A stretch of DNA of 64,000 bases from an uncultured virus (IMG/VR IMGVR_UViG_3300032288_005212). Lineage: Duplodnaviria > Heunggongvirae > Uroviricota > Caudoviricetes. Below, piece after piece: positions 7,129 through 38,553 of the stretch. Location of the stretch: positions 1-64,000 of IMG/VR virus record IMGVR_UViG_3300032288_005212; one strand, 5' to 3'. Both the position numbers and the translations under genes were made by a program. Every line of letters begins with the position of its first letter. Position 1 is the stretch's first letter. Below the pieces are notes generated by a model that searched no databases, was not told the DNA's origin, and was given only the letters and a program-made list of their open reading frames with translations.

Positions 7129-7448
7129 GATTCTTCCTTTGGTGTAATGTAGTAAAGTGTACTAGGTAAACTAACTACTAAGAACGGAATATTAATTCGT
7201 GTGCAACCAATTTTATCTTCTGCTGAAGGTTCACCACCAGAGGGGTGAGAGTGATATATTGTTTCTATTTCTTTTTTATATTTCAGAAAATGAAGTGGGT
7301 CAATCATCCAAGTTTCTACCTTATCTTCAGCAATATTCTCTAGCTCTACTATTTCTCCGGATTTAAGAATAAATCCACATATCTCTTCGTTTGTACCTCT
7401 TGCTTTTTCAGCAAGAGTATTAAATAGGTTTACCGTAAAGTCCAGCAC
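7098..7448 (-). CDS. Tail assembly protein K-like, JAB/MPN metalloprotease domain only
   Basis: EEICGFI...YHSHP....PS.ED JAB motif. Probable start is GTG at 7448 with GGAGG at 7457-7461. Confidence 0.8.
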   Translation of the reverse strand: MLDFTVNLFNTLAEKARGTNEEICGFILKSGEIVELENIAEDKVETWMIDPLHFLKYKKEIETIYHSHPSGGEPSAEDKIGCTRINIPFLVVSLPSTLYYITPKEESCLQFDFTDI

Positions 7449-8463
7449 TTGGAAATCCTCCGAATGGTAATGCTCTTGTGCCAAACCTTATCTTACACGA
7501 AGTTAAGCGTTTTCCGCACACGTCTTCAGACGCTGTTGAAACAATTAAATCATCTGCATCAAAAAATTTGGATCCTGTAACTTCGGTTATAGTTACAGTT
7601 AGGTCGTTGGCAGGAGTAGCACCTCCTAAAGCTGTTCCTAAAACTTTAATAGTATTACCAACAGTATATCCTGTTCCAGGATTTGATACTGTTGCAGAAG
7701 TATATGTTCCTGCACCACTTTTTACTACAGTAAGTTTTGCTCCAGATCCAGAACCTGTTATTTTTGTTGTAGCTACTTGTGTATAAGTAGTTGCTGTACC
7801 AGTCGCAGTGCCACTTAAACTTCCAACAGTAACAGCTCCACTAACACTCCAAGTGCATGGATCAGACTTATAGGTCCAAGGGCATATATTTGCAACTATT
7901 TGTCTTCTTGGAAGCATTATTCCTTCTACATCCCAAGCAGAAGAAAGCTCAAAAGTTACTTGACCTGGTATTGATTCAGACATTCTATCAATATTATATA
8001 CATCGTCTGGAAACTTTGCTTGTGGATCGGCCGAAGGATTTCCAGCTGTAAAATTACTTGCATTTAAAAATTTTACAAATGTTCTAACTCTTCTAATTTT
8101 TGCACCAACAAGGTTTGCATAGGCTTTGCAGGCTTGAGTAAAAAATAAATCATGATTTGCAACTGTTAAAGTTGGGCGAGGAGTTTCTCCTGCTGAAGAT
8201 ACTAGTAAGCCCTCTATTTGTATTGGACGAGCTGTATAAGTAATTTCTGGATTACCCCATTTTACTTCTTGATTAATTGTGCCGTATCTTTCATTATATC
8301 CATTATGAAAATAATAATTAGTAGTAGCAATGGGCACTCCTTTTGAGGTATAATATTCTTGTAAAGGAGTAAGATCTAGTTCAAATAGTTCTATAATCGC
8401 GGATGGATTATACTTGTATATTTCATTTAATATAGATGAGTTAGATTCTTGTTGTGTAGGCAT
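7420..8463 (-). CDS. Minor tail protein L (lambda gpL-like, Cys-ligated Fe-S)
   Basis: IELFELD, PRPTLTVAN, RTFVKFL, ICPWTY..DPC and CGKRLTSCKIRFG..LPFGGFP motifs. Confidence 0.9.
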   Translation of the reverse strand: MPTQQESNSSILNEIYKYNPSAIIELFELDLTPLQEYYTSKGVPIATTNYYFHNGYNERYGTINQEVKWGNPEITYTARPIQIEGLLVSSAGETPRPTLTVANHDLFFTQACKAYANLVGAKIRRVRTFVKFLNASNFTAGNPSADPQAKFPDDVYNIDRMSESIPGQVTFELSSAWDVEGIMLPRRQIVANICPWTYKSDPCTWSVSGAVTVGSLSGTATGTATTYTQVATTKITGSGSGAKLTVVKSGAGTYTSATVSNPGTGYTVGNTIKVLGTALGGATPANDLTVTITEVTGSKFFDADDLIVSTASEDVCGKRLTSCKIRFGTRALPFGGFPSAGLYGKPI

Positions 8464-8816: not shown

Positions 8817-11800
8817 TATCTTCTACCTCTAAATAATAATCCGCCAGGTCTCTGCTGGTTAAATATTTCTTGTTTTACTGCATTTGAGATTGCAGTTCCA
8901 AGTCTTCTTGAGTATTCTTCTGTGTTATCTTTTGATGACGTATTTGTTGTAGCACTTCCAGATCCATCAACTGCAACGTTAATAGCAATATTATTTGTAT
9001 TTCCGCCACCATTACTCATTGTTACAGGAATTGTGCGACCATCTGGAAGAGGTACATACGCCTCTGGGCGTGATCCTTCTCCGAACATTGCAAGTTGTGG
9101 AGTTCTTGCTATTCCTCCACGAGCATATTTTTCGAGAGGCATTGGACCAGAGGAAGACATTACGCCACCTTTTTCAAAGCTAGAGCCTACGGTTCCACCT
9201 ATTTGGCTACCAATCATTGCCCCAGCAGGGCCTCCAACTGCACCACCTATGGCTCCACCTATGGCTCCTAATACTCCGCCTAAAAGCGCTTTCTTAGGAC
9301 TAGCACCTGCAGCAAGTGCGGCAGCCATTTGTGCAAATCCTGCCGCAGCTATAGTGCCTACATTTTCTGTGGCATAAGTTTGAGCATCCCCCCAAAAACT
9401 AGTTTCTTTTACTGTATTAGCAGTATTAATACTTGTTTTATCTAAAGTATCATAAGTCATTCCACCTAACTGATAGTTTTTCTGATCCCATTTTTGTGAT
9501 TCTTTAAAATAATCTATAGTTTTTGGATCACCAGTAGGTGTAGGATTAAAACCTGCTGTATAAACTCCTTGCTCATTAATACCGCTCTTAAAACCATTCA
9601 GTGTTGGGACTAAACCGCCCGCTACTGGCATAGATGTTACAGAACCTCCGCAGCAATTTGCTGTATTATTAGCAATCTCCTGCAATAAGTCAGTATGACT
9701 TTTAGCTGTTTCAGTAATAGCCTTTGTAGTAGCTTTGGTAGCTTCAATTGCTTTATCTTGTGGGGTTTTGAATACCTCAGCTATTCCGCCCATTCCAGAG
9801 GCGGTAAATAATCCAGCTATCCCTTCTTTTAATTTATTTTTTGCAGCTTCTGCAAGTCCTTCTCTTAAACTATCGCGTACTGCAGAACCAATAGCCTTAA
9901 AAGCATTCTTTCCTTCTACTATTGCATCTACGAAGGAGTCTACAGCACTATTAACAGCATTAGAGAAAATATCAGCAAGTTCTTGAGTAATCGATTTTGC
10001 ATCTTGTAGGGTTTTTAAGAAATTTTGTCCAATCGCAGTAGAAATATCCTGCCAAGAAGTCGTCATTTTTTGCGTCCAGCCAAATACAGCTTGTTGTGCT
10101 TGTATTTGCGCTGCAGTTATTTCTGATACTGCAGCTTCTGTTTCCGAACGAGTTGCGGCTGCGGCCGCTTGAGCTGCTTGCGGTAAAAGTACGGCGGCCT
10201 CTGCAAATACTCCAGGTAATGTATCTATTAATGTTTGTATATTACCTAGCTCAGCGGGATCTGTTGTTTGATTTTTTAAAGTTTGAAGTTGGCTTTTTAA
10301 TGTAATTTCTTGTATTTTTAATTGAGCGCCCATTAATTTATATTCAAGATCTATAATTCTTAGTTTCATTTCTTCTTCTTCACGAAGCAGCGCTTTTTTC
10401 TTTTCGCCAAACTCCATTTCTAGTTGAAGAGTCTGTTGAGCTGTTAATTCATACTCACCAATACCTTTATTACGAAGATTTATAGCTTTTAATTCGTTTT
10501 CTCTAATAGTTCTTTCGTTGTCTAGTATAGTAGACTTTGAAGAATTAATTTTTTCCTGAATATTTCCGGTTACATTAGCAAGGTCAATTTGGCGCTGAAT
10601 CAAATCGGCTGAAACCTGAGCAGTGGCTTCAGTATTAGCCTTATCAAGTACAGCGACTTTTAATTTATCATCAGTTATAGCCTTTTCTCTATCTAAGTTT
10701 GCTTGTGTTCTTTGTTGTACAGCAATTTGAGAGTAGTTTAAACCTTGAAGTGCTGTATAAGCATCTTTCAATGCTACAAGATTCTGTTGTGTTTCCGTAT
10801 CTTGTGGAGTAGCTGCAGATTGTTTTTGAAGATCCTTAATATCTTTAGCAAGTTCAGCCCTTAAAATGGCTAACTTAGCATTATTAAGTTTTTCTTCCAT
10901 ATTGATTGTACGAAGTTTTAGCCCATACTCTCTATTTATATTAGCTGTTTTTTGATTTTCAAATTTGCGAAAAACTTCCAATTGCTGGCGAGCAGAGAGA
11001 GCCGCCTCACCGCCTTGTTGAATATTTTGTAGTTGTAAGGAAGTTTCTTCTATACTTATCCGAGACTCAAGTATTGATTTTGAAAGATCAAGTTGTTTTT
11101 GTAGTATTGAAACAATTTCCTGCTCACCGCTCATTCTTCTTTCTAAATTAGTATAAGCTCTTTTAGCGTTTTCGATTTCCGTGCTAGCTGAAAAATTGGC
11201 TTGTTCTGTTATAAGTATACCACGTCTTGAAGCCAATTCTATTAATTTAGTTTCAGCAGCTCGTCTATCTGCGGTTTCATCTGATACTAATTTTTGTTGT
11301 TGATTTATCTCATCAGTAATATATGAAATTTCATCTGTATATATCTTATCTTGCAGCTTTTGCCTTGAATCAAAACTAGCTTTAGTTTCAAAATTAGAAA
11401 GCTTTATTAATGAATTTATATACTCTAAACTCTGTTTTTCTCTATTTAATATCTGAAGCTTTATATCCATGGCTTCTTTTATAGCAGTTTCTTGTTCTAA
11501 TCTTTTTTCTGCTTCTTCTGATAATTTTTCTGCTCTTCCAGAAGCTTTTTGTGCAATTCTCTCAATTATCTCTAATATTTTAAGTCTATCTTTTTCACCC
11601 GTTATTTGCTCTAGACCTAAACCTTGAACTTCTAGGCCTACTGATTTTAAAGCATCTTCAATTTTTTTAACGTCTTGATAAGTAAAATTTACGCGAAAGT
11701 CTACTGATTTTATTTCAGCTACCGCTCTACTAAAGGATTCGGCCCCCTTTGTCGCAGAATCTAACTCTGCTTTAGCTACATCTAAACCTAAAAATTTTGC

Positions 11801-28784: not shown

Positions 28785-28914
28785 GATAAAATTTTTGGAA
28801 GGGTTAATTTAGATTATTAAGCGCCTTTCGAGTTGAAAAAATCCCAAAGTTGCGCGTGAAGGTGTGCGCCCGGCTGTGTGAATATTACCAGTCTCGGAAC
28901 CGCCCCTCCCCACC

Positions 28915-28930
28915 TGGCACGCCCCTTGCA
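28915..28930 (+). promoter_or_regulatory. sigma54 -24/-12 box
   Basis: TGGCAC-GCCCC-TTGCA. Confidence 0.7.
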
Positions 28931-28966: not shown

Positions 28967-29010
28967 TGGTAATATTACCACTTGCCTTTGCCCAAAGCCA
29001 CCACTATACT
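28967..29010 (+). promoter_or_regulatory. TGGTAATATTACCA palindrome + sigma70 promoter
   Basis: Perfect 14-bp palindrome at 28967-28980, then TTGCCT-17-TATACT. Confidence 0.7.
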
Positions 29011-29036: not shown

Positions 29037-29345
29037 ATGCCGAAGATCACCCAAGCCCAAGAGTATATGTGGAAGCCCGCGATGGAAGCCTACAATTCTT
29101 GCTGTGGCGGATGCGGCAGCCCGCTTGATCTGGAATACGATCACATTGTGCCCCGTTGCCTTGGCGGTTCCGATCATGTTTCTAATATTCAAATCCTGTG
29201 CCATCATTGCAACCAACACAAAGGCAAGGTAGCCTTTCCCAAGGTATCGCCCCGTATGCCTGAGATGTCGATTCCGCAGATTCTCGAGAATCGCAAGGCC
29301 TTTGTGTACTCGATCAGAACATGGAAAATTACCATTGCATCCTGA
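29037..29345 (+). CDS. HNH endonuclease
   Basis: CGGCG..LEYDHIVPR..GGSD..SNIQILCHHCNQHKG; start ATG 29037 after GAGGA. Confidence 0.85.
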   Translation: MPKITQAQEYMWKPAMEAYNSCCGGCGSPLDLEYDHIVPRCLGGSDHVSNIQILCHHCNQHKGKVAFPKVSPRMPEMSIPQILENRKAFVYSIRTWKITIAS

Positions 29346-29391
29346 TTCGACCTACCCTATACTGACTCCACCTAAACAAGGAAACGCAAAC

Positions 29392-29613
29392 ATGAACGCA
29401 CAACAGATCCTCGACGTACTCAAAACCGGCGTGTACTTCGTCACGTTCGAGAAGGACAACGGAGAAATCCGCAGCATTAAGGGCTCGGCCCCTACTACTG
29501 CGAACATTCGCACAGATGGAATCGTTCCCATTGTGGAAGATGGAACAGGAGCATGGAAATCCTTCCGCGCTTCTGCTATGCTCACGATCGTACCCGAAAC
29601 CCTTGTACTCTAA
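29392..29613 (+). CDS. WYL_2-like / Sm-like SH3 beta-barrel protein
   Basis: L..G...VTFEK.NGEIR...G....WKSFR motif. Confidence 0.65.
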   Translation: MNAQQILDVLKTGVYFVTFEKDNGEIRSIKGSAPTTANIRTDGIVPIVEDGTGAWKSFRASAMLTIVPETLVL

Positions 29614-29623
29614 GGAATACGCC

Positions 29624-29922
29624 ATGAACAATTGCAAATCGTTCGCCCAATACCTCGCCCTGATCGCAAACCAAAAGCAACGGCAACGGCCCGCGATCTT
29701 CTGGCCCGTACCCTCCAGCAAGAGGAAGGCGGCATGAAAGACTTTAACATGAACCCGGAACTCTATCGCAAATTCCGGGCCGATCTTCTGGGATGGTGTG
29801 CCTTTTATCGCGCATACTCTGCGAACGAATGCGCGACGGTTGGCAAGGTAGCCCACCGTGCAATCCGCCGACAGATGGCCCACCTTCGTCAATCCTACTT
29901 TGTGGGGAATATTACCTATTGA
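29624..29922 (+). CDS. Two coupled small hypothetical ORFs (29624-29737, 29734-29922)
   Basis: AAGGA SD; ATGA overlap. Confidence 0.5.
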
Positions 29923-29979
29923 CGAGATGCCTGGCCGTATGTCATAATGGTGGCAACGGCCAGGGCCGCGCCGAAAACC

Positions 29980-29995
29980 TGGCACGCTTATTGCA
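29980..29995 (+). promoter_or_regulatory. sigma54 -24/-12 box
   Basis: TGGCAC-GCTTA-TTGCA. Confidence 0.7.
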
Positions 29996-30003
29996 TCAGT
30001 TGA

Positions 30004-30034
30004 CCTAGGGCCAAGATGCGAATCATTCTCATTT
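30004..30034. repeat. CCTAGG-N4-Fur-like palindrome, copy 1
   Basis: CCTAGG gcca AGATGCGAATCATTCTCATTT. Confidence 0.85.
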
Positions 30035-30161
30035 AGGCCTGGTCCGCGCCGATTTTACCACACTAAAATATGCGCTGTCAATACCTCAAGAATGTGAACA
30101 AATACCATTGCAATTCGAGTCTTCCTCTGTCATACTGATCCCACCAGATAGAGGAAAACAT

Positions 30162-31036
30162 ATGTCACACGTAGCCTTTGAACTTCGCAACGAACGCAGC
30201 AACATAGACTGGGCCGTATATATCGACGGCAAACACTGGAAAACCTTTCCGGGCGATCGCCACCTTGCAGAATACAAGGTCAAGGAAATGTGCAAGCGGA
30301 AGACCGCCGAGACTGGCCGTCGTTGGGATGTGGTCGCTGTCCACTGGTAATATTACCGCTTGACGGCGAGCGATTGATCCGCCATACTGTGCCCATGTTC
30401 AACGGAGATCAGACAATGCAAAACGAAATCCGCGCTGCACAATTCCAAGCCGCACAAGCCAGCTTGGCCGCCTTTGACTGCTACCGCACTGCGAAGCGTG
30501 AGATCATCAAGGGAGATCGCCAGATCGGCCAGCTCTGGAGCCGGTGGGGCGATATGCTGATGGCGATCAACGCGAAGGCGAACGATGACATTCGTTTTCT
30601 GGAATGGGCGCAAAGCATGGAAGAAGCCTACGTTGACGGGTACTATGGGGAGTGATTATGAGAATCGGAAAACTGCCGAACCGCGGCATAGTTGACAAAC
30701 TACTAGTAATAGTTCAAGGCCTGGCAACAGTGGCGGATGGCCTAATCATGATCGGCAGCTTCGGATTCTATGGTTCGATGATGTCGATGGATATTTCACG
30801 GTATCGTGCATGGCGCATGATTCAGAGAGGCAGAAAAAATGCAGTGTGAACACCAGTTCAAACCCGGAAAGATTGTAATCGGCACGCCAACAAATGGTAG
30901 CAGTTACAATCCGAAAATGTGGGGCCGTGGCGAAGGCATCTGGCTCGATGGTCGAAAGGCCAGGCTAGTTCCATGCGAAAAGTGTGCCAAGTGTGGTAAG
31001 ACTCTTGTAGACCATAATTTGTACTACGGCTGGTAA
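30162..31036 (+). CDS. Four small pre-early ORFs (30162-30350, 30416-30655, 30652-30849, 30839-31036)
   Basis: SD sequences, coupled overlaps, own promoters at 30108-30136 and 30360-30388. Confidence 0.55.
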
Positions 31037-31039
31037 ATC

Positions 31040-31055
31040 TGGCACGCGTCTTGCA
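31040..31055 (+). promoter_or_regulatory. sigma54 -24/-12 box
   Basis: TGGCAC-GCGTC-TTGCA. Confidence 0.7.
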
Positions 31056-31064
31056 GGGCGAGGC

Positions 31065-31095
31065 CCTAGGTAGTTGTTGCGAATTATTCTCATTT
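31065..31095. repeat. CCTAGG-N4-Fur-like palindrome, copy 2
   Basis: CCTAGG tagt TGTTGCGAATTATTCTCATTT. Confidence 0.85.
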
Positions 31096-31236
31096 AGCGC
31101 GCTTGACAAAAAGGCGCGCTTCGCGCCAACGCGTGCAAAATCAAGAGTAAATTTTATGTACTAAGTCACAAATAATTCTTGACTCCTGGGATTGTCAGTC
31201 TGTATAATGGCGACTTCAGCAATGGAGATCGAAACG

Positions 31237-31461
31237 ATGCATCACTACACTGAAACTCTGGAATCTGGCAACTGGCTCATCGAACTCAGCCCGACCACTG
31301 AATACGGGTATTTTGAGAATCAAAAAACCGGCAGCGGTGGCGGCCTTTGGTTTGAAGGAAACGAGCTGGTAGACTATGATGGTGTTCTGTCGCTGCCAGT
31401 AGCAGTTGCAAGCGCGCTCACTGGCGCTGGATATGTACTCGGAGAGGAGTTTTTTGCGTGA
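31237..31461 (+). CDS. Hypothetical phage protein
   Basis: GGAG SD; YGYFE....G.GGLWF....LVDYDGV motif; promoter TTGACT-18-TATAAT at 31179-31208. Confidence 0.6.
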   Translation: MHHYTETLESGNWLIELSPTTEYGYFENQKTGSGGGLWFEGNELVDYDGVLSLPVAVASALTGAGYVLGEEFFA

Positions 31462-31859
31462 AACTGGTTATCAGTAAAAAGTTCCCGAGAGCCGTTCGGA
31501 GAATAATCCGAGCGGCTATCGCTGCAAGTAATGCACACGCTCCGATGAACGTGAGAACTCTTATTGTAAAACCTACAAAAGGTCACGATTATCACGGACT
31601 AGCGAAAGAAAACGAAGGTGTGGCGATTATTGAAATCTGCCATACTGAGCCCGATTATCTCGATACTGTATTTCATGAATGCTACCATATTTATCAATAC
31701 TCGCAGGGTATTGTAAAATCAGAATATAATGGATTTAAATGGCGCGGTGTTTATATTCCGCTGTTTCTTTACAATATGTTTCATTCGTTTGTGCCTTTTG
31801 AAATATCAGCAAAGGCATATGCTAAGAAAATGTGCAAAAAGGTGGAGGCATTGCAATGA
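31458..31859 (+). CDS. Zincin-like metallopeptidase
   Basis: TVFHECYHIYQ (HExxH)...PFEISA. Confidence 0.7.
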   Translation: MKLVISKKFPRAVRRIIRAAIAASNAHAPMNVRTLIVKPTKGHDYHGLAKENEGVAIIEICHTEPDYLDTVFHECYHIYQYSQGIVKSEYNGFKWRGVYIPLFLYNMFHSFVPFEISAKAYAKKMCKKVEALQ

Positions 31860-32065
31860 TTCGAATTACTGCAGCATATGGGCGCAATTACTATTCCGCT
31901 GAAATTGTGCGTCAAGATTGGGAAAGCGATAAAGACTTTCGAATGATTGACGGCGGCGGATATATTAATCGCTCCGATTGGCTAAAATATAATAAAGGGT
32001 TGGATAGCATTGTGTTTTCTAATGGTGTGGTATTAATGCACCTTGAGCATGGTGTACTTCCATGA
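31856..32065 (+). CDS. Hypothetical protein
   Basis: GGAGG SD; AYGRNY.S...DW...KDF motif. Confidence 0.55.
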   Translation: MIRITAAYGRNYYSAEIVRQDWESDKDFRMIDGGGYINRSDWLKYNKGLDSIVFSNGVVLMHLEHGVLP

Positions 32066-32073
32066 TGGAGGTA

Positions 32074-32107
32074 CCTAGGTGCCAAATGAGAATAATTCTC
32101 ATTTGGC
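32074..32107. repeat. CCTAGG-N4-Fur-like palindrome, copy 3 (perfect 13-1-13)
   Basis: CCTAGG t GCCAAATGAGAAT-A-ATTCTCATTTGGC. Confidence 0.9.
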
Positions 32108-32210
32108 TGTCACTGCGCCAAATAGCGTGCAAAATCAAGAGTAAAAATTCACACTTGAACCTGGGCGGTGAGATGCTATACTGCTCAAGTCTAAACCGGA
32201 GAGCCAAACC

Positions 32211-33535
32211 ATGATGACTCGCTCGCAACACGCCGAACTCGCCGCAGAAGTCGCTGAGGCCGTAGTAAAGCCCACGCAAACCGTCGGGCAGGTGGCAGAG
32301 CATATTTTTAATGCGGCTGAAGTCATGCGGAACATTATGCTTGATTCCGCAAACATGACGCAGCAGGAACTGCACGGGCATATCCAGTTTGCAACCGAAT
32401 TGCAACGTGCATATGTACGTCGCGCAACTATGCTGGGGATACTCTGATGCTGTATAATCTCGGCACACTGGTAATGCTTTTTACTGGCATACTAGTCTCG
32501 GGGTATGTTGCTATAAAAATGCTCGAACACTACTTTGGAGAGTAAAACATGAATTTTTCGATGACGATTGAGAATGCTACGGTTTCGACTGTCGTTCGGA
32601 ACGAATACGAAATTATTCGGCATATCGAAGCCTGCTTTCTCGCGGCTGGATATGACTCCGATACTTTTGCTGAGTATCTGGCACACTATCTGGAGCTTTA
32701 TCATGAGATGACGGTACTTCCGGAAAAAGAGTACACGCAGGCGCTCGCCGAAGCTCGGGAGGAAGCCTATGATGAAGGTTTCGATGATGCTACTGCCGAA
32801 AAAAAGGAAGAGGCAGAATATGCCTGCAATTGCCCGATGTGCAAAGATCCCGTCGCCTATGATGCGGGCTGGAATGATGGATTCCAAGGCGAAGAAAATC
32901 TCGACGAAGATATGGCAAAAATTCCCGCCTATATGGTAGGATACGAGAATGGAAAGATCGACCGAGAAAAAGGCCGCTACAATGGCGAAGCAATCTGAGG
33001 AGTAATGATATGATCATCACGCGTATGTCGATTTTCTCTGGCAAGATTCACTCTTGGGATATTCCGGTAACGGAAGAGCAGATCGATCGCTGGCAGCGCG
33101 GTTGTCTGATTCAGAATGCGATGCCGCACTTGACTGCGGATCAGCGAGAGTTTATTATGACGGGCACCACTCCTGATGAGTGGAATCAAATGTTTGGGGA
33201 GGATGCAGCCTAATGCACGCTTTTCAAATGAACTACGGTACAGTGGATATGGGAATGAATAAATATACACGGGCCGCGATTGCTTTGGGCGCTACCGTCG
33301 AGGACGGTATAAACTGGACGTGGGCAAATCATTTTGCCACGCGAGAGCTGGCTCAGGAATTTATCAATATGTTTCCTGAGATGGAAACACGCGGCATCTA
33401 TACTGATAGCCCGGGCTTTTCTGTGAGGTTTCGATGAAAAATCCTGTAGCAAAGTTTAGCCGCCAGGTCAACCGATCGGCGGTTCAGCGGGATCGTAAAA
33501 AAGCCGCAAAGCGCGGATATAGGAAACACAAATGA
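32211..33535 (+). CDS. Five small pre-early ORFs (32211-32447, 32549-32998 acidic, 33010-33213, 33213-33437, 33434-33535 basic MKNPVAK...RKHK peptide)
   Basis: GGAG SDs, coupled stops/starts; 33010 ORF has the IQNAMPHLTADQREFIMTG phage motif. Confidence 0.6.
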
Positions 33536-33867
33536 GAAACACAAAAAACTATCTTGCACTCGGGCACGATATTGAAGAAAACTTTTTCTTTATAAAGATT
33601 GGGTTATCTGATGACCCCGAAGAACGTGTATCTAAACTCAGAATGAAACTGCTACACGTTTGGGAAAACATATGGATATCTGATGGCGACTACTCTTGCA
33701 CAGTAGAAGCTTTTTTCTTAAAAACTATGGGTTACTCTCATTATACTTATAGTAACCATAAATTTTCAGGGTCATCCGATTGCATTGGAAGATTTAAAAC
33801 AAAAGAAGAAGCTTTATTCATTGGCAGGCAAATGGTAAAGTTTATTTTATCCCTTCAATATGACTAG
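33532..33867 (+). CDS. GIY-YIG / T5orf172-like protein
   Basis: FIKIGLSDDPEERV..L motif; AT-rich relative to flanks. Confidence 0.55.
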   Translation: MRNTKNYLALGHDIEENFFFIKIGLSDDPEERVSKLRMKLLHVWENIWISDGDYSCTVEAFFLKTMGYSHYTYSNHKFSGSSDCIGRFKTKEEALFIGRQMVKFILSLQYD

Positions 33868-33878
33868 GGCAGAAGGCC

Positions 33879-33934
33879 CGATGCGACCCATTCGCATCGG
33901 CGACCTAGGTCGTTGTTGAGAATCATTCTTATTT
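33879..33934. repeat. Double Fur-like boxes flanking one CCTAGG (copies 4 and 5)
   Basis: CGATGCGACCCATTCGCATCG-N4-CCTAGG-N4-TGTTGAGAATCATTCTTATTT. Confidence 0.8.
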
Positions 33935-33949
33935 CCGCGCGGAGCGCCA

Positions 33950-33978
33950 ATTATAGCGTGCAAAATCAACGGCGTCAA
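33950..33978 (-). promoter_or_regulatory. Leftward sigma70 promoter with GC-rich discriminator
   Basis: TTGACG-17-TATAAT-TGGCGC. Confidence 0.75.
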
Positions 33979-34009
33979 GTGTAAATGTGTGTAATATTGC
34001 ACAAACTCC

Positions 34010-34040
34010 AAATGAGTCTGGTTCTCATCTCGCACCTAGG
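34010..34040. repeat. Fur-like box-N4-CCTAGG, copy 6 (inverted)
   Basis: AAATGAGTCTGGTTCTCATCT cgca CCTAGG. Confidence 0.75.
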
Positions 34041-34267
34041 GCGCGCCCCTGGCGCTTGTCAATAGGAAATATTTCACATTCCTGGGGGTGGATCTGCGGG
34101 CGGGGAGGCCTCATAATAGCGGCTTCTGGTGAGGGTTCACCGGAAACCGAAAGGGGAAGTCAATGGCAATATTCACACAAATTCGGAATGCGCTGCGGTC
34201 ATTCTTTCGGGTACAATGTGAAACATCGGTGGGGCAGTGTGCTTCACCCAAATCGGAGAGTAAAACT

Positions 34268-34579
34268 ATGTCGCTCTACACTGAGTCGATGGTGTCGGAA
34301 CTGATGGCTCGCGCGAGCTGGTCGTATGATGACGCGGTTGCGTTCGCTGAGAAGCATTCCAGCGTGTCGGTACGTTCGGTTATCAGCAAAATCAAGTCTC
34401 TGAAGCTGGACTACACCGCGAAGCCGAAAGCTGCGACGGCGAAGACTGACAAGGTGCGGAAGTCGGAGATCGTGGGCGAGATCGCACTCGCGCTCGGTAT
34501 TCAGGCTGACGCAATCTCGGGCCTTGCCAAGGCTGACGCCGCTTGCCTTCGCGTTCTTCTGGCGAAGGTTGCGGGCTAA
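34268..34579 (+). CDS. T5 A2-like small DNA-binding protein, paralog 1
   Basis: YT..M......SVRSVISKIKSL.LDY...VRK.EIV.EIA...I.GL.KAD resembles T5 A2/D3-type proteins; GGAG SD. Confidence 0.65.
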   Translation: MSLYTESMVSELMARASWSYDDAVAFAEKHSSVSVRSVISKIKSLKLDYTAKPKAATAKTDKVRKSEIVGEIALALGIQADAISGLAKADAACLRVLLAKVAG

Positions 34580-34779
34580 TGGTTCGGGTCGCTGCCATCT
34601 TGGGAACCGGGGCAATGTGCATTGCCCCCTTTTTCATCGACACGCTTCCTGGCAAATTGTGTGCCATATGCGGCCTGTTACTTTTGACAATACAGGCACT
34701 TGATCTGCGCGCTTACAATCTGGTACTCTTAAATCTGGTCGGCATTGCTGGCTACACTTTTTCAAGCATGGGAGCCTAG
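34579..34779 (+). CDS. Small membrane protein
   Basis: Hydrophobic; TAATG coupling. Confidence 0.55.
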   Translation: MVRVAAILGTGAMCIAPFFIDTLPGKLCAICGLLLLTIQALDLRAYNLVLLNLVGIAGYTFSSMGA

Positions 34780-34782
34780 AAT

Positions 34783-35259
34783 ATGTACCGCTCGATTTTT
34801 GATCTCGATGGGACTGTAATCGATTCCACACACCGCCACGCTACGCTGCCTGATGGGTCGCTTGATCTGGCACATTGGATTGAAAATTCCACGCCTGAGA
34901 AAATCGCTGCGGACTCTTTGCTGCCGCTTGCCGATTATATGCGGATGTTCTTCCCGCATCACGAGGTGCTGGTATGCACTGCCCGCGTGATGGGGGAAGC
35001 CGATTACGAATTTTTGTTCGATAACGGATTGCAGGCTGATGCGATTCTTTCGCGCCCTGCTGGCAACCGTCTGCCGGATGGGTTCCTTAAGGAAATGCTG
35101 CTGCGCGATCATGCAACACGCCGCGGCCTTACTTGGGTGGAATTTGTAAAAAATACCACGATCTTCGATGACAACGCTTCTGTGCTTGACACGCTCGGAC
35201 GGGTTGGAATTCGGACGATCTGCGCCCGCACTCTTAACCGGGTGCTGGCGGAGGACTGA
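34783..35259 (+). CDS. HAD-superfamily phosphatase (possible nucleotidase, T5 Dmp analogue)
   Basis: FDLDGTVIDS motif I, VCTAR motif II, K and FDDN motifs III/IV. Confidence 0.8.
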   Translation: MYRSIFDLDGTVIDSTHRHATLPDGSLDLAHWIENSTPEKIAADSLLPLADYMRMFFPHHEVLVCTARVMGEADYEFLFDNGLQADAILSRPAGNRLPDGFLKEMLLRDHATRRGLTWVEFVKNTTIFDDNASVLDTLGRVGIRTICARTLNRVLAED

Positions 35260-35270
35260 CACCGACCAGG

Positions 35271-35307
35271 TGCTGCGAATGGTTCTCATTCGCATTGCCG
35301 CCCTAGG
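35271..35307. repeat. Fur-like hexamer array-N4-CCTAGG, copy 7 (inverted)
   Basis: TGCTGCGAATGGTTCTCATTCGCATTG ccgc CCTAGG. Confidence 0.75.
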
Positions 35308-35405
35308 TCGCCGACCTGGGCGTGTCAATAGGAAATAATACCGCTTAACTGGGATGTGCATCATGGTATACTCCACGTCCCAACTACTGCTCGGGAGAGC
35401 ATTTC

Positions 35406-36125
35406 ATGGCTAAAAAGCAATTCTATCTGATCATCGATACCGAAACGACAATCGATGAAAAAGTCGCAGATTTCGGTGCCGTTATCGTTGATCGGAAAGG
35501 CCGCATTGCTGCCCAATGTGGAATTCTCATTAATGGCATTTACAATGATCGGGAAAACCATCCGCTCTTTTATAATGAATACTCGGGCGACCTTTGGAAA
35601 AAGTCGAGCCTTGATAAGCGATATAATAACTATTCGGCAATGCTCGCCAACGGTTCCCGTATGCTCGCATCAATTCCTGCGATTAATACTTGGCTCGCAA
35701 AAGCGGCAAACAAGTTTAATCCCACACTGACCGCATATAATCTGGCATTCGATCTCGGTAAATGCGTCAATACTGGAATTGATCTTTCCTATTTCGAGAA
35801 TCGGTTTTGCCTTTGGCACGCTGCATTTAATAAATGGGCGCATACTAAAAACTATCGCAATTTCGCTCTACAAATGCACGCTTTTAATGCTCCGACTAAA
35901 TTGCAAAATATGTCGTTTAAAACGAATGCGGAAACAATGGCACGTTTTATTACTAATTCGCCCGATATGCCTGATGAACCGCATACCGCACTCGAAGACG
36001 CAATCTATTATGAATTGCCAATTCTGAAACGATTAATCGAAACGACAGAGCGTAATGTATTTATGAATCCCGAGCCTTTTGACTGGCGCAAGGTTCAGGT
36101 CAAAGATTGGTTTACCGCTAAATAG
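35406..36125 (+). CDS. DEDDh 3'-5' exonuclease
   Basis: IIDTET, AYNLAFD and EPHTALEDA motifs. Confidence 0.9.
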   Translation: MAKKQFYLIIDTETTIDEKVADFGAVIVDRKGRIAAQCGILINGIYNDRENHPLFYNEYSGDLWKKSSLDKRYNNYSAMLANGSRMLASIPAINTWLAKAANKFNPTLTAYNLAFDLGKCVNTGIDLSYFENRFCLWHAAFNKWAHTKNYRNFALQMHAFNAPTKLQNMSFKTNAETMARFITNSPDMPDEPHTALEDAIYYELPILKRLIETTERNVFMNPEPFDWRKVQVKDWFTAK

Positions 36126-36233
36126 GTGACATATGACAGAATTGGAAACTTTGAAAATGCGAATGGAAATTATTCGGACGGTTTGTCCGATTCTTTCCCT
36201 CATCCTTCAATTGATAATTCTGGGGCGTTTGAT

Positions 36234-36644
36234 ATGAAAATATCTAAATCCTTTCGCAATTCGCAACGCAAAATAATCGAGGCGGCTGTTAAAAATAGCC
36301 GCCTTGATTTGAATCTGCCCGATCTGCGCGATATTAAAGTAAAATCGAATAAATCAAAATCGCTCGACGGTTGGGCTGATGTTTCAAATGGGTATGCGGT
36401 AATTTCAATTAATCGCCGATTAAAAGGCGCGGAATTGTTTTGCTGCGTTGCACATGAAATGGTACACGTTAGCCAATTACTATCCGGCCGCCTTGTAACT
36501 GCCGCTCCGAATCTTTTTATCTGGAATGGAAAGGTTACGCGATTAACGGAGGAAAAAATGGCTAAAATGAATCCCGCAAAATATCGGGCATTGCCTTGGG
36601 AGCGGGAAGCATATTATTATGGCGATTCTTTTTTGGGAGATTAA
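36234..36644 (+). CDS. Zincin-like metallopeptidase (paralog of 31458)
   Basis: VAHEMVHVSQ...Y..LPWEREAY. Confidence 0.75.
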   Translation: MKISKSFRNSQRKIIEAAVKNSRLDLNLPDLRDIKVKSNKSKSLDGWADVSNGYAVISINRRLKGAELFCCVAHEMVHVSQLLSGRLVTAAPNLFIWNGKVTRLTEEKMAKMNPAKYRALPWEREAYYYGDSFLGD

Positions 36645-36647
36645 AAC

Positions 36648-36794
36648 ATGGGACCGTGGCTTGTTTTGTTTGTCGGTTTGATTTATTTAATTATTGCGGC
36701 GGATTTTGCCTTTCGGAATAATAACTGGTGGATGGCATCCGTTTATTTTGGATATGCGTTTGCCAATGTGGGGCTTTTTCAAATAGGGAAATAA
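36648..36794 (+). CDS. Small 2-TM protein (48 aa)
   Basis: Hand translation MGPWLVLFVGLIYL...FGYAFANVGL; GGAG SD. Confidence 0.55.
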   Translation: MGPWLVLFVGLIYLIIAADFAFRNNNWWMASVYFGYAFANVGLFQIGK

Positions 36795-36822
36795 TACCGC
36801 TTGACGCCAGGAGGGCGCGGGC

Positions 36823-36853
36823 CCTAGGTAGATGATGCGAATCATTCTCATCT
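36823..36853. repeat. CCTAGG-N4-Fur-like palindrome, copy 8
   Basis: CCTAGG taga TGATGCGAATCATTCTCATCT. Confidence 0.85.
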
Positions 36854-36871
36854 CGCTCCTAGCTTGCGCCT

Positions 36872-36887
36872 AGCAAGAACCATGCCA
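36872..36887 (-). promoter_or_regulatory. sigma54 -24/-12 box (minus strand)
   Basis: TGGCAT-GGTTC-TTGCT. Confidence 0.65.
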
Positions 36888-36915
36888 ACATTTGTGGGAA
36901 TAATGCCAGCGCTTC

Positions 36916-37104
36916 GCGCCAGCCAGAGTGGGAAATCAATGTCAAGTTGCGTACGTGCAATTTTATTGGGAATTTTTCACATACTTGTCTCCGCGCCAGC
37001 GTACCACAGTGCGAAATCAATGTCAAGTAAGAAAGACAAAGAACATATGTGAATTTTTCTCAGGTCTGCGCCATTATACGAGTGCGAAATCAATAATGTC
37101 AAGT
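36916..37104 (-). repeat. Three tandem ~76-bp units, each a leftward sigma70 promoter-like element
   Basis: GCGCCA...AGTG(C/G)GAAATCAAT..GTCAAGT at 36916, 36993 and 37068. Confidence 0.8.
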
Positions 37105-37225
37105 AATTTCCACACAGAATAAATGTGAATATTACAGCAGTCTTCCGCTTGCGTTTTCTCCTGCCAGCCTTCATAATACTCTTGTTGTTGAGGCAGTCCC
37201 TAGTTCAAATTCAATGGAGAAATAT

Positions 37226-37522
37226 ATGAGTGCTTATTCTAATTCGATGGTCACCGAGCTCTGCGCCTCCGCGCACACTTATGAAAGCGCAGCAGCTTTT
37301 GCTAGCAAGCACAATCTGTCGACGCGCAGTGTTGTGAGCAAGATCAAGTCGCTTGGCCTGGACTATAGGAAAAAAGAAGTAGTTTCTGTTAGCCAGACGC
37401 GGATTCGGAAGGCTGACGTGGTTGCAGAGATTGCCGCCCGGCTTTCGCTTGACAGCGAAAAGTTGGCGGGGCTGGGGAAAGCGGACGCTGCTAGTTTGCA
37501 GCAGCTTTTGAAAGCTATTTAA
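37226..37522 (+). CDS. T5 A2-like small DNA-binding protein, paralog 2
   Basis: Clearly alignable to the 34268 ORF (STRSVVSKIKSLGLDY, IRKADVVAEIA, GLGKADAA). Confidence 0.65.
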   Translation: MSAYSNSMVTELCASAHTYESAAAFASKHNLSTRSVVSKIKSLGLDYRKKEVVSVSQTRIRKADVVAEIAARLSLDSEKLAGLGKADAASLQQLLKAI

Positions 37523-37552: not shown

Positions 37553-37733
37553 ATATTTGTCCACTTTTGGCAAAAAAACTTGACTTTTTTGGGCTAGAAA
37601 GCCCGCCACCGAGTTGCAATCCGTTTTCCCCCAGCTACCCCTCTTCGAGGGAAAATTCTGAATACCTATTCGAAAAAACTTGACTTTTTTTGCTCATGAT
37701 GATATAATATATACTTTTTTGGAGGGTCTAAAA

Positions 37734-38033
37734 ATGTATACAGAAGATGAAGTAACTATTCTACAGCAATATCCGAGTCTTTCCGTGGAAGAACTGGCAG
37801 CTCAGCTGGGACGCAGTGAGAGATCAATTATTGGAAAGCTGAGTCGCCTGGGAATTTATCAGCGAAAAACCTATGTGAGCAAAACTGGTTCACCACCCAT
37901 TAGCAAACTGGAAATTGTGGCTGAGATAGAGTCTGCATTGCAGATGAAGCTTGAAGGGCTAGAAAAGAGTCCAAAAGGTGTATTGCTTTCTTTGCGAGAT
38001 AAACTGAGCGGCGGGGCATTTCCAAATTGCTAG
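37734..38033 (+). CDS. T5 A2-like small DNA-binding protein, paralog 3
   Basis: MYTEDE...SERSIIGKLSRLGIY...ISKLEIVAEI...LEGLEKSPK; promoter TTGACT-17-TATAAT at 37680-37708. Confidence 0.65.
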   Translation: MYTEDEVTILQQYPSLSVEELAAQLGRSERSIIGKLSRLGIYQRKTYVSKTGSPPISKLEIVAEIESALQMKLEGLEKSPKGVLLSLRDKLSGGAFPNC

Positions 38034-38061: not shown

Positions 38062-38090
38062 AAAGGGAAGCTTAGTTGCTTCCCTTTTTT
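38062..38090. terminator. Bidirectional-looking intrinsic terminator
   Basis: AAAGGGAAGC-TTAGTT-GCTTCCCTTTTTTT. Confidence 0.8.
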
Positions 38091-38094
38091 ATTA

Positions 38095-38468
38095 GTCCAT
38101 GAAAGTCGCATTAGTGTAAAAGTTACAGGCAAAATTAGCCCCTTCAGTAGAAGCAAGCCAAGTAGTTATTTAACGAAGATTAACTACTTGGCAATTGATT
38201 TAAACAAGTCAATGTTAAGAATACGCTGCTTAGAGTTAGTTCTTAATGTTCTATTTGATTTAGTTACAGTCGAAAAAAGATTAAACGACGAAGAACAATA
38301 AGTTGTGTCATTCACGGGACCGGGAGTCAAACTCCACCCTGAAACAGGGTACCCTCCGTGTGACCCGGTCCCGTTATAGGACACTAACTATTGTAACTTC
38401 TACTGTATAATTTTTTTCTCCGTCGGATTAGAACAATAAGAAGTTTCTGTTTTAGCTTCTCAAAAACA
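38095..38468. other. Non-coding, stem-loop-rich segment (injection-stop-signal-like DNA or ncRNA)
   Basis: 12-bp perfect stem at 38157-38192, multibranch stem at 38300-38390, long-range pairings; leftward promoter at 38475-38503. Confidence 0.5.
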
Positions 38469-38553
38469 TGAGATATAATATCATTTCGAGAGCAAAAAGT
38501 CAAGAACTTTTTTTCTGATGTATGACAATAAAAAAGGGCCTTCAAAGAGACCC

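Follow-up and report, generated by a model that had tools for sequence, protein, structure and literature searches.

The repeated intergenic modules of this phage are best explained, at what we judge to be about an even chance, as host-gated early-promoter cassettes that double as recombination joints. They would represent a multiplied, dispersed version of the set of non-coding elements found in the terminal repeat of T5-like phages, and they lie in an island at 28.85-37.5 kb of the window (the whole stretch of 64,000 nucleotides analysed) that homology supports as candidate counterpart of the T5 first-step-transfer terminal repeat. The edge and the genes of this island comprise the following features.

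28836..28912, + strand: non-coding conserved junction (alignment with T5, phi 3 and relatives)
~28854, + strand: predicted left terminus of a T5-type terminal repeat (terminus alignment)
28890-28905, + strand: terminus-proximal motif AGTCTC..ACCGCC, within the junction 28836..28912
28915..28930, + strand: sigma-54 box 0, TGGCACG-N4-TTGCA, not followed by a CCTAGG-Fur unit
28968..29010, + strand: first rightward promoter, with AT palindrome GGTAATATTACC, -35 TTGCCT and -10 TATACT (motif scoring)
29037-29345, + strand: HNH endonuclease, first island gene, served by the promoter at 28968..29010
34268..34579, + strand: ~100-aa protein, possibly A2-type DNA-binding, paralog of 37226-37522, common to relatives
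34783..35259, + strand: homolog of Dmp, the T5 pre-early deoxynucleoside-5'-monophosphatase (31% identity, E 4e-18)
37226..37522, + strand: second ~100-aa paralog, directly downstream of the F/G repeat cluster, common to relatives

The initial annotation spoke of first-injected DNA, a designation that holds as far as homology, its sole support, carries it: through Dmp, the alignment of the left-edge termini and the match to injection-stop repeats. The physical left termini of T5 and of phi 3, a Vibrio phage, can be aligned with the left edge of the island; the GTCT and ACCGCC blocks are invariant in this alignment, which includes five relatives, and the junction is conserved in nine TerL-relatives. 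Dmp matches 905 phage records, nearly all T5-like by name, and in T5 and phi 3 the match falls inside the terminal repeat as annotated. In addition, the GCGCC/GTGCRAAATCAA elements of the island agree both with the consensus of the T5 nicks and with the repeats in the injection-stop regions of T5 and phi 3. The two ~100-aa paralogs are 46% identical to each other, and the ~100-aa island proteins show weak similarity to phi 3 A2 (pairwise E 0.002-0.05); a homology search of the phage detected no A1 homolog.

Motif counts over the whole genome (106,084 bp) bear out the remark that the module is not seen outside the island, as the motifs occur almost only in 28.9-37.1 kb of the 106-kb genome. This segment holds all three perfect sigma-54 boxes, seven of the eight CCTAGG sites, all good Fur-type palindromes and all six GCGCC...GTGCRAAATCAA elements. 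The sigma-54 boxes (TGGCAC-N5-TTGCA at 28915, 29980 and 31040, against 0.01 expected in the window) are all on the + strand, and the 15-mer TGMGAATNATTCTCA, allowing at most one mismatch, is found at 30017, 31078, 32087, 33917, 35274 and 36836 only. GCGCC-N(5-13)-GTG(C/G)RAAATCAA occurs six times, always on the + strand and in gaps, and nowhere else on either strand. The seven island copies of CCTAGG lie within 30004-36823 and compare with 1.9 expected, whereas the single copy outside compares with 12 expected from composition or 3 from a Markov model; ACATGT, TACGTA and CTTAAG are avoided genome-wide as strongly as CCTAGG. The modules themselves, for which no overall strand is assigned, are built as follows.

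29905..30136: module A, with rightward promoters 29919-29948 and 30108-30136, sigma-54 box 29980-29995, CCTAGG 30004-30009, Fur 15-mer 30017-30031, GCGCC 30046-30050 and leftward promoter 30081-30052
31040..31208: module B, with sigma-54 box 31040-31055, CCTAGG 31065, Fur 31078-31092, GC hairpin with leftward terminator-like site 31113-31133, GCGCC...GTGCAAAATCAA 31123-31144 and rightward promoter 31179-31208
32074..32182: module C, without sigma-54 box, with CCTAGG 32074, perfect Fur palindrome 32085-32103, GCGCC...GTGCAAAATCAA 32115-32138 and rightward promoter 32155-32182
33879..34117: module D, with half-degenerate palindrome 33882-33896, CCTAGG 33904, Fur 33917-33931, GCGCC...GTGCAAAATCAA 33944-33969 inside leftward promoter 33978-33950, an inverted unit (Fur-like 34013-34027, CCTAGG 34035, -35 TTGACA 34062-34057) and then a weak rightward promoter
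35274..35372: module E, an inverted unit, with Fur-type site 35274-35294, CCTAGG 35302, leftward -35 TTGACA 35328-35323, AT palindrome 35331-35342 and rightward promoter 35345-35372
36787..37177: module F/G, likely counterpart of T5 Repeat Region 3 (families D7, D13, D17), with AT palindrome 36787, -35 TTGACG 36801, CCTAGG 36823, Fur 36836-36850, three diverged direct repeats GCGCC...GTG(C/G)RAAATCAA ~76-81 bp apart (36916, 36993, 37068), leftward promoter matches 37026-36998 (weak -10) and 37102-37073 (strong), and rightward promoter 37149-37177

All six gaps listed by the initial annotation hold the parts it named. The constant order of these parts is found in gaps A-D, but the orientation of the CCTAGG-Fur unit is reversed in gap E (35.26-35.41 kb) and in part of gap D, and the sigma-54 box, which had been taken as a usual part, is present in only two of the six gaps, the third lying at 28915 before the first gene; in gap F (36.79 kb) a -35 box replaces it. 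The pairing of CCTAGG with a Fur-like palindrome is likewise real, but instead of the N4 arrangement it consists of a 19-bp 9-1-9 site five bases from CCTAGG. Three leftward sigma-70 promoters (30081, 33978, 37102) reach scores of 11-12 out of 12, and D-type modules in six relatives keep the leftward -35 and -10 with varying adjoining bases. The AT palindrome GGTAATATTACC or a near copy lies two bases upstream of the rightward -35 at 28968, 29905, 30346, 35331 and 36787. Tandem Repeats Finder reported no repeats at module F/G because the copies are too diverged.

The core unit is rigid. The distance from CCTAGG to the 15-mer core is exactly 7 in 72 of 73 units from this phage and 25 related metagenome contigs, with a variable spacer sequence, and this spacing is tighter than promoter/operator logic requires. 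Among the 50 distinct units, 32 carry a sigma-54 or TTGAC -35 box at a fixed upstream distance: in 11 the sigma-54 box lies 8-10 bases upstream, with TGGCAYG-N4-TTGCM unchanged across eight different spacers, and in 21 TTGAC(A/G) lies 15-16 bases upstream. Units of the latter type have a poor E. coli-type -10 (TAGGNN) and may bind polymerase without firing; compared with the Caulobacter housekeeping consensus TTGAC-N16-(G/C)CTANA, five of six -10 positions agree (PMC2724300). The position of CCTAGG relative to the start site differs between the two classes. A fixed upstream box at 32 of 50 units is, for the predicted sites, ordinary operator geometry, and as the Fur box sits just downstream of the polymerase recognition element we prefer operator control to the ratchet or anchor put forward earlier, which this geometry suits less well. 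Counting against control are the remaining 18 units, which lack a recognisable polymerase element upstream, the outcome of a search for a sigma-54 enhancer site, which found none, and the placement of the T5 Fur-type boxes in a gene-free stretch of 1.2 kb, where controlling genes is not an obvious purpose.

That these are host-protein binding sites, as initially claimed, is sustained by agreement with Fur and sigma-54 consensus sequences and by conservation in relatives, the sites being predicted ones. The palindrome equals the Fur consensus AATGAgAATcATTctCATT of Xanthomonas (PMC1790865) and the Fur sites TGAGAATGATTCTCA of E. faecalis (PMC6056675), either of which may differ from that of the host, and it shares the TGCGAA/TTCTCA asymmetry with validated Caulobacter Fur sites (PMC2724300). 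Its symmetry is kept to +/-9 and decays beyond, which suits a 19-bp protein site and not a long hairpin. Hexamer-array extensions are present at 35274-35294 and in L009, and five TerL-relatives carry Fur boxes at the equivalent place. L050 has two sigma-54 boxes plus a third copy facing them; in the cultured phage phi 3 the terminal repeat contains two perfect ones, where 0.00 would be expected. In T5, 16 hits within the first 12 kb (both strands counted; 1.1 expected) agree with the Fur consensus of E. coli at 14 or more of 19 positions, including a cluster at 9653-9700 beside the major nick. The T5 stop region, too, holds strong Fur boxes. A homology search found no genes for Fur, sigma-54 or a sigma-54 activator in the phage.

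We propose that the cassettes would operate as follows. Upon DNA entry, a strong outward sigma-70 early promoter with its AT-palindrome upstream element would drive the next small-gene cassette. Just downstream of an RNA polymerase element facing it would lie the core, CCTAGG-N5-(19-bp Fur box). In the sigma-54 -24/-12 class the start site would fall inside CCTAGG and the Fur box at ~+10 to +28; in the class with AT palindrome and -35 TTGAC 15-16 bases before CCTAGG, the Fur box would span the start site. Many modules would add a leftward sigma-70 promoter also firing into the Fur box. The fourth part would be a GCGCC...GTGCRAAATCAA element of the nick-and-repeat type known from T5. Iron-loaded host Fur on the core would block the facing polymerases; with Fur off, the rightward auxiliary sigma-54/sigma-70 units would boost downstream expression and the leftward units would direct antisense or convergent transcription against the upstream cassette. 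The pre-early accessory genes would in this way be tuned to the iron status and sigma-54 activator status of the host.

A recurring cassette of 100-400 bp would also provide a homology patch for gain, loss and swapping of gene cassettes. The recombination junction suggested earlier finds direct, if modest, comparative support: 24 of 71 distinct breakpoints fall in modules, which make up 18% of the island (p 0.001), and plain gene boundaries are frequent breakpoints too. In near relatives, indels begin exactly at CCTAGG (33904, 36823) or at the GCGC element (31116), and E-type units are found between genes that lack them in the window. Most ORFs of 29.0-34.2 kb have no homolog in the TerL-relatives.

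The statement that no such module had been described went too far, as there are precedents both in T5, with its repeat regions and the signal that stops injection (Davison, bioRxiv 10.1101/866236), and in T4-like myoviruses, with their promoter-early stem-loop (PeSL) cassettes (Arbiol 2010, PMC2839356; Comeau 2014, PMC4122927). T5 shares a Dmp-bearing, terminus-proximal block of small early genes and, in identical order, AAATGAGAATCATT-type Fur boxes, R-GCGC (nick consensus) and GTGCRAA(A)TC repeats (9 copies in T5, 12 in phi 3, 6 in the window); in both, the elements are highly repeated, palindrome-rich and conserved, and the flanking ORFs are not. T5, however, packs them in three gene-free regions, whereas here six or more promoter-tied intergenic cassettes are dispersed. 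T5 also lacks the CCTAGG coupling and the sigma-54 boxes, the latter being present in phi 3. No A1 homolog was detected here, and the DnaA boxes that define the T5 model are not enriched in the window. The available part of the T5 repeat-region text does not mention Fur or sigma (bioRxiv 10.1101/866236). PeSLs are likewise short composite regulatory cassettes recurring among small variable early ORFs of a hyperplastic region, at which indels and replacements between close relatives start and stop. They belong to another phage family, have a regular stem-loop terminator that the modules lack (palindrome symmetry ends at +/-9), and have not been described with host regulator sites (Fur, sigma-54) or backward-facing promoters. 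A 19-bp 9-1-9 box overlapping or just downstream of the polymerase site is also a feature of ordinary Fur-repressed bacterial promoters, examples being those of TonB-receptor genes in Caulobacter (PMC2724300) and the Fur box that precedes sitABCD in lambdoid phages (PMC6969025). Here, in contrast, the boxes (at most eight per genome) stand in the first-expressed region of a virulent-type phage, often have promoters firing into them from both sides, are rigidly coupled to CCTAGG and have no iron gene beneath them.

In 1998 Stewart reportedly described a host-takeover module of Bacillus phage SPO1, located in its terminal redundancy. This module too is a terminal-repeat block, in which each of numerous small early genes has a strong host-type promoter to itself; we know of no report of host-regulator operators, sigma-54 boxes or backward promoters in it.

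An unlikely but serious alternative is that the modules are not mainly gene switches and instead load abundant host proteins on the entering DNA, Fur and sigma-54/sigma-70 polymerase in closed complexes holding, pausing or protecting the first-injected segment as an injection stop or anchor. The F/G cluster (36.79-37.18 kb) points this way, sharing with T5 Repeat Region 3, the site of the stop signal, three elements in identical order (Fur-type boxes, R-GCGC, GTGCRAA repeats), as does the GCGCC-GTGCRAAA array at the right end of the annotated phi 3 terminal repeat. Both unit classes would recruit poorly opening polymerase (sigma-54 without a phage activator gene, -35 units without a good -10), the L050 sigma-54 boxes stand face to face, and one relative has a consensus parS adjoining a Fur box. 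The logic is that of Davison's proposal that membrane-bound DnaA on DnaA boxes stops T5 injection (bioRxiv 10.1101/866236). However, one stop signal does not account for six to eight inter-gene modules over 7 kb, DnaA boxes are not enriched, and a Fur anchor would be unreliable because binding depends on iron load. To our knowledge, T5 host-gene screens recover mainly the receptor gene fhuA, and not fur or rpoN.

Less likely again, palindrome and CCTAGG could be operators of phage-encoded proteins (either the helix-turn-helix proteins, A2-like or GcrA-like, that the island encodes, or a small repressor not recognised as such) with a convergent likeness to Fur boxes. The CCTAGG-N7 coupling is invariant and lineage-specific, being absent from dmp-bearing TerL-relatives that retain the palindrome; the composite is at chance level in bacteria (7 matches in 185,579 genomes); three ~100-aa island proteins are HTH-like with weak similarity to phi 3 A2; and in phi 3 and L009 the conserved terminus motif partly coincides with a Fur-like half-site. 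Against this reading, the 19-mer agrees base for base with experimentally defined Fur sites of several bacteria. It also persists among phages whose TerL proteins share just 67-83% identity, and T5 keeps it with a half-site of the E. coli type, whereas one would expect drift in an operator that co-evolves with a repressor of the phage. Least probable is that the modules are mainly DNA-processing sites with secondary promoter likeness, GCGCC (G|GCGC, minus strand) being a T5-type site-specific nick and CCTAGG a cleavage site of a phage pre-early nuclease, avoided by the rest of the genome. According to the T5 record, nicks follow the minus-strand consensus 5'-N-Pu-pGCGC-N-3', and the major one (9748/9749) separates the Fur-type boxes from the first GTGCAAATCC repeat; the single-strand confinement of the GCGCC...GTGCRAAATCAA elements to modules, the skewed CCTAGG counts and an HNH endonuclease as first island gene fit as well. 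On the other hand, R-GCGC is low in information, the equal avoidance of three other palindromes means that CCTAGG avoidance may be mere restriction avoidance, T5 and phi 3 offer no CCTAGG link, and the search for an A1 homolog found none.

With their host-type control sites, the modules supply named host proteins to test for the start of T5-type infection.

Based on its large terminase (TerL), which shares 49% identity with the terminases of Vibrio T5-like Demerecviridae, and on head and tail genes consistent with a siphovirus of that kind, we assign the virus to the distant T5-like phages. The record is a linear assembly of 106,084 bp (CheckV completeness 100%) with a gene interrupted at its ends, the window being its first 64 kb. 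The structural and packaging genes make up a leftward block that reaches to 28784, and leftward genes resume as another block at about 38.1 kb; the small genes between the two blocks are all rightward and form a putative early-gene island (about 28.85-37.5 kb) with a G+C content of 44-54% vs 30-42% over most of the remaining genome. Few island proteins belong to any family, among those that do being an HNH endonuclease, a HAD phosphatase, a DEDD-exonuclease-like protein and a GcrA-like helix-turn-helix (HTH) protein. A search for cultured close relatives among 50,697 phage records gave no nucleotide match to the island and no protein match to two island ORFs, and the exonuclease-like gene, used as a query for relatives, found none among viral contigs. 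The genes needed for the argument are the following.

Island genes referred to in the text.
34783-35259, rightward: homolog of Dmp, the T5 pre-early deoxynucleoside-5'-monophosphatase (HAD phosphatase; 31% identity to T5 Dmp, E 4e-18)
34268-34579, 37226-37522 and 37734-38033, rightward: HTH-like proteins of about 100 aa, two of them paralogs (46% identical)

Two long ORFs, 29329-29985 (-) and 34762-35376 (-), encoding 218 and 204 aa, run antisense to real rightward genes, dmp included, and both start close to backward-facing promoter units; they are probably by-products of high G+C. Further right, a 55-nt inverted repeat (37679-37733 / 38450-38504) forms a pair of strong promoters that face each other; enclosed between them are the GcrA-like gene, a two-way terminator (38062-38087) and, at about 38290-38390, hairpin-rich sequence with no clear ORF.

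The island genes are separated by repeated intergenic cassettes, here called modules A to F/G. According to the initial annotation, most of the larger gaps share a sigma-54 box, CCTAGG with a Fur-like palindrome, GCGCC with a leftward promoter, an AT palindrome and a rightward promoter, usually in one order. Genome-wide motif counts recover all of these parts in the six gaps and limit them to the island. The sigma-54 box is less widespread than claimed, being present in only two of the six gaps, with a third box preceding the first gene, and the common order holds with exceptions: the core unit (CCTAGG plus a 19-bp Fur-type palindrome) is inverted in gap E and in part of gap D, and the position of the sigma-54 box of A and B is occupied in gap F by a -35 box. 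The perfect form TGGCAC-N5-TTGCA occurs three times in the genome, at 28915, 29980 and 31040 (0.01 expected in the window), 7 of the 8 genomic CCTAGG sites fall within 30004-36823, the Fur-type 15-mer (at most one mismatch) occupies six positions, all in the island, and the GCGCC...GTGCRAAATCAA element is found six times in the genome, on the + strand only and each time in a gap. A promoter consensus scan places leftward promoters at 30081, 33978 and 37102 (11-12 of 12 consensus matches) and rightward promoters before each cassette, with the 12-bp AT palindrome GGTAATATTACC ending two bases ahead of the -35 of the latter.

Outside 28.8-37.6 kb several 6-bp palindromes are scarce (observed vs expected: ACATGT 0 vs 32, TACGTA 1 vs 32, CTTAAG 3 vs 32, CCTAGG 1 vs 12), in what looks like restriction avoidance; CCTAGG alone among them is enriched within the island. 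The window holds no parS site and no enrichment of DnaA boxes. A single copy of the parS consensus core GTTTCACGTGAAAC lies in the island of a relative (4113-4126 of L084, from the same contig as L009), some five bases beyond a Fur-type palindrome. The idea that the modules derive from a captured common host promoter was rejected, the composite CCTAGG-N7-Fur motif having 7 matches in 185,579 species genomes, which is about chance level. Two candidate relatives (G001, G003) that seemed to keep the genes in the absence of modules were discarded as counterexamples, as both also lack dmp and both are incomplete.

The core unit has a fixed geometry. The distance between CCTAGG and the 15-mer TGMGAAT-N-ATTCTCA is 7 bases in every copy in the island, and the inverted or degenerate ones at 33882, 34013 and 35280 conform to it. 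Scanning metagenomes with the composite motif yielded 35 contigs, 25 of them clearly island-related (70-92% identity) and many with two or three copies, while viral contigs gave no match. Taken together, the island and the 25 contigs contain 96 CCTAGG sites, from which 73 oriented units with a Fur-like box could be defined, with a spacing of exactly 7 in all except one (72/73); since the spacer letters vary between units, it is the geometry that is kept. The two palindrome arms are complementary in 33-41 of 41 cases at offsets 2-4 and 6-8, in fewer at offsets 1 and 5, in 26 of 41 at offset 9 and at about chance level further out. With symmetry thus confined to +/-9, the element is a 19-bp palindrome of the 9-1-9 protein-binding type and not a long hairpin, and a role as RNA hairpin or terminator was rejected on the same grounds, no U-tract following it. 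Known RNA families (27.5-41 kb, E up to 1) gave nothing except weak matches at a terminator.

Two classes of promoter element are found at a fixed distance upstream of the core unit, together accounting for 32 of 50 distinct units. In 11 of the 50, a sigma-54 box lies 8-10 bases upstream of CCTAGG; in 21, TTGAC(A/G) lies 15-16 bases upstream, preceded by the AT palindrome. By the usual conventions, transcription in the sigma-54 class would start inside CCTAGG, placing the Fur box at about +10 to +28, and in the -35 class CCTAGG would span -14 to -9, with the Fur box at about -3 to +16. Units of the latter class read TTGAC-N16-CCTAGG and resemble the Caulobacter housekeeping promoter consensus TTGAC-N16-(G/C)CTANA (PMC2724300), for which reason CCTAGG may serve there as a -10 of alphaproteobacterial type; such a role leaves the CCTAGG that follows sigma-54 boxes unaccounted for.

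Three perfect copies of the sigma-54 box match the extended consensus TGGCACG-N4-TTGCW, with GG at -24, GC at -12 and exact spacing, and eleven distinct boxes in relatives differ in their spacers with the core letters invariant. Across the units, TGGCAYG-N4-TTGCM is constant and the four spacer letters come in eight versions, as would be expected if selection maintained a -24/-12 promoter. The relative L050 has, at about 3230-3290 on the minus strand of the locus, two boxes in tandem at a distance of 28 bp and after them a third facing the opposite way; the facing pair there forms a 35-bp palindrome with CTAG at its centre. No upstream enhancer site could be recognised. The phage genome encodes neither Fur nor sigma-54 nor a sigma-54 activator, no PF00158 or sigma-54 domain being found.

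The palindrome itself has the consensus rATGmGAAT-n-ATTCkCATy, identical to the Xanthomonas campestris Fur box (PMC1790865) and to E. faecalis Fur sites (PMC6056675), and it shares the TGCGAA...TTCTCA asymmetry of Caulobacter Fur sites validated by gel shift and footprinting (PMC2724300). Seven island sites match AATGAGAATCATTCTCATT at 15-18 of 19 positions. Outside the island, the sole Fur-type site with 15 of 19 matches is at 64128-64146 of the genome, 128 bases past the window. Some copies are extended into hexamer arrays in the manner of Fur sites (35274-35294; also in the relative L009), and relatives whose TerL is only 67-83% identical keep the palindrome, without CCTAGG, at the equivalent place adjoining a conserved junction. 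Strong leftward promoters, too, read into a Fur-type box. By consensus and promoter placement, the 19-mers thus qualify as putative Fur boxes.

The flavour of these Fur sites and the CCTANA-like -10, combined with the GcrA-like gene and a permuted tmRNA, hint with low confidence at an alphaproteobacterial host. The tmRNA gene, in two pieces, lies beside a tRNA cluster at 75504-75803 of the genome (11504-11803 of L089, the stretch beyond the window; Rfam RF04321, 93.7 bits), and a search with it against genomes for the host returned only 34-nt matches.

Five lines of evidence agree that the island is the probable counterpart of the terminal repeat that T5 transfers in its first step. Phage records give 905 matches to the Dmp homolog, nearly all of them from T5-like phages, and the left terminal repeats annotated in T5 and in the cultured T5-like Vibrio phage phi 3 both contain dmp. 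In Vibrio T5-likes, 1-4 kb separate dmp from the terminase gene when counted across the genome ends, which fits an island beside the packaging block. The non-coding junction at 28836-28912 is conserved in nine relatives and can be aligned to the first 60 bases of T5 and phi 3 with GTCT and ACCGCC invariant, base 1 of phi 3 falling at about 28854. Bases 32-46 of phi 3 form a Fur-like box that overlaps the terminus motif. Second-step transfer requires the genes A1 and A2; the A1 of T5 and phi 3 and the A2 of T5 have no match in the phage genome, divergence past detection being possible, and the three proteins of about 100 aa resemble phi 3 A2 only weakly, with pairwise E-values from 4e-4 to 0.05. 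A motif, S-x-R-S-V-x-x-K-L-x-x-L-G, is common to these three, phi 3 A2 and GcrA-type HTH domains.

The GCGCC...GTGCRAAATCAA element in turn matches the repeat region found at the right end of T5-type terminal repeats. The T5 record gives the nick consensus as 5'-N-Pu-pGCGC-N-3' on the minus strand and places the major nick at 9748/9749, directly before the first of nine (T)GTGC(A/G)AATCCGAC repeats (9753-10478); GCGCC on the + strand equals G|GCGC on the minus strand. In phi 3, twelve GTGC(A/G)AAAC(C/T)GA repeats occupy 7514-7783, two of them preceded by GCGCCA, and the terminal repeat ends inside the array. The combination GCGC-N(0-14)-GTGCRAA(W)HC is found at the T5 major nick, twice at the end of the phi 3 repeat and six times here. 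In the T5 stop region, AAATGAGAATCATT appears four to five times at 9554-9713, some 35 bp from the major nick and with 15-16 of 19 positions as in the E. coli Fur consensus, and the first 12 kb of T5 contain 16 sites with at least 14 of 19 matches (both strands counted) vs 1.1 in shuffles. T5 and the window modules share one order, Fur boxes followed by R-GCGC and GTGCRAA repeats, with the T5 boxes standing in gene-free DNA. Examined directly, both T5 and phi 3 have Fur-type boxes, DnaA boxes and repeats; sigma-54 boxes are absent from T5, whereas phi 3 has two perfect copies, 4415-4430 (+) and 7336-7351 (-), in untranslated parts of its annotated left terminal repeat (0.00 expected). Within the island, the F/G cluster (36.79-37.18 kb) combines a single core unit with three diverged repeats and is likely the counterpart of Repeat Region 3, to which the T5 injection stop maps; three of the six GCGCC...GTGCRAAATCAA elements are clustered there (36916-37093), and Tandem Repeats Finder is blank on this triple repeat (36.9-37.1 kb) because the copies are too diverged.

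The modules also coincide with sites of gene turnover. Most ORFs of 29.0-34.2 kb lack a homolog in the TerL-relatives, which share with the island the genes for Dmp and the exonuclease-like protein, the paralog pair and the GcrA-like gene. As, in addition, dmp is about 1 kb from the junction in these relatives vs 6 kb here, the G+C-rich ORFan stretch with modules A-D is an expansion. In nearer metagenome relatives, alignment breaks recur at 33904 and 36823, each the first base of CCTAGG, and at 31116, in a GCGC element; the gene at 33532-33867 is present or absent between relatives with one breakpoint at CCTAGG; and two of these relatives (L102, L104) carry inverted, E-type units between genes that have no such units in the window. 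Overall, 24 of 71 distinct internal breakpoints lie in modules, which make up 18% of the island (p 0.001), and many others lie at plain gene borders. This is akin to the promoter-early stem-loop (PeSL) cassettes of T4-like phages, which mark the boundaries of indels and replacements between close relatives in a hyperplastic region (PMC2839356, PMC4122927). Early promoters are present here too, but the stem-loop terminator is absent, a terminator-like hairpin being found only in module B.

Based on these analyses, we propose, with the balance of evidence close to even, that the modules are host-gated early-promoter cassettes. In each, a constitutive outward promoter would be paired with an operator for Fur, binding of which would block the polymerase elements that face the operator on one or both sides. 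Through this pairing, pre-early accessory genes would be tuned to iron and, via sigma-54, to an activator, and the repeated cassette would also act as a recombination joint. Other roles can coexist with the one proposed. The modules may form a platform for docking or pausing, along the lines of Davison's DnaA model; in the accessible part of that T5 preprint (bioRxiv 10.1101/866236), DnaA is the sole host candidate named and Fur goes unmentioned. They may also comprise operators for phage proteins, the three proteins of about 100 aa being candidate readers of the GTGCRAAATCAA repeats, or nick or cleavage sites, the GCGC elements corresponding to the T5 nick consensus.

A wider reading, which we consider unlikely, joins several of these roles and extends them to T5 itself. 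T5-type phages would equip the DNA that is first to enter with sites for host Fur and for promoter-bound, non-firing RNA polymerase (with sigma-54, or with sigma-70 at sites that lack a usable -10). The loaded proteins, the R-GCGC nick and a phage protein on the GTGCRAAA repeats would together make up the device that stops and restarts injection, copied between every gene cassette in the lineage of the window, and CCTAGG, avoided in the rest of the genome, would be recognised by a partner protein or nuclease.

How DNA entry of T5 is stopped and restarted, and what the conserved repeats of its first segment do, has been an open question since the 1960s-80s. The window and its relatives, taken with phi 3 and T5, show Fur-type boxes recurring in first-entry DNA across hosts, next to the T5 nick site and the GTGCRAA repeats, and sigma-54 boxes recur in the lineage of the window and in phi 3, but not in T5; these boxes make the question approachable in T5 and E. 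coli K-12 with simple tests. The PeSL idea, that regulatory cassettes double as recombination joints, is here carried to another phage family. T5-like phages enter their hosts via iron-regulated TonB-dependent receptors, which is why wiring to iron status would be notable: if true, it would represent an unusual case of a virulent phage that ties its very first genes to the iron status of the host.
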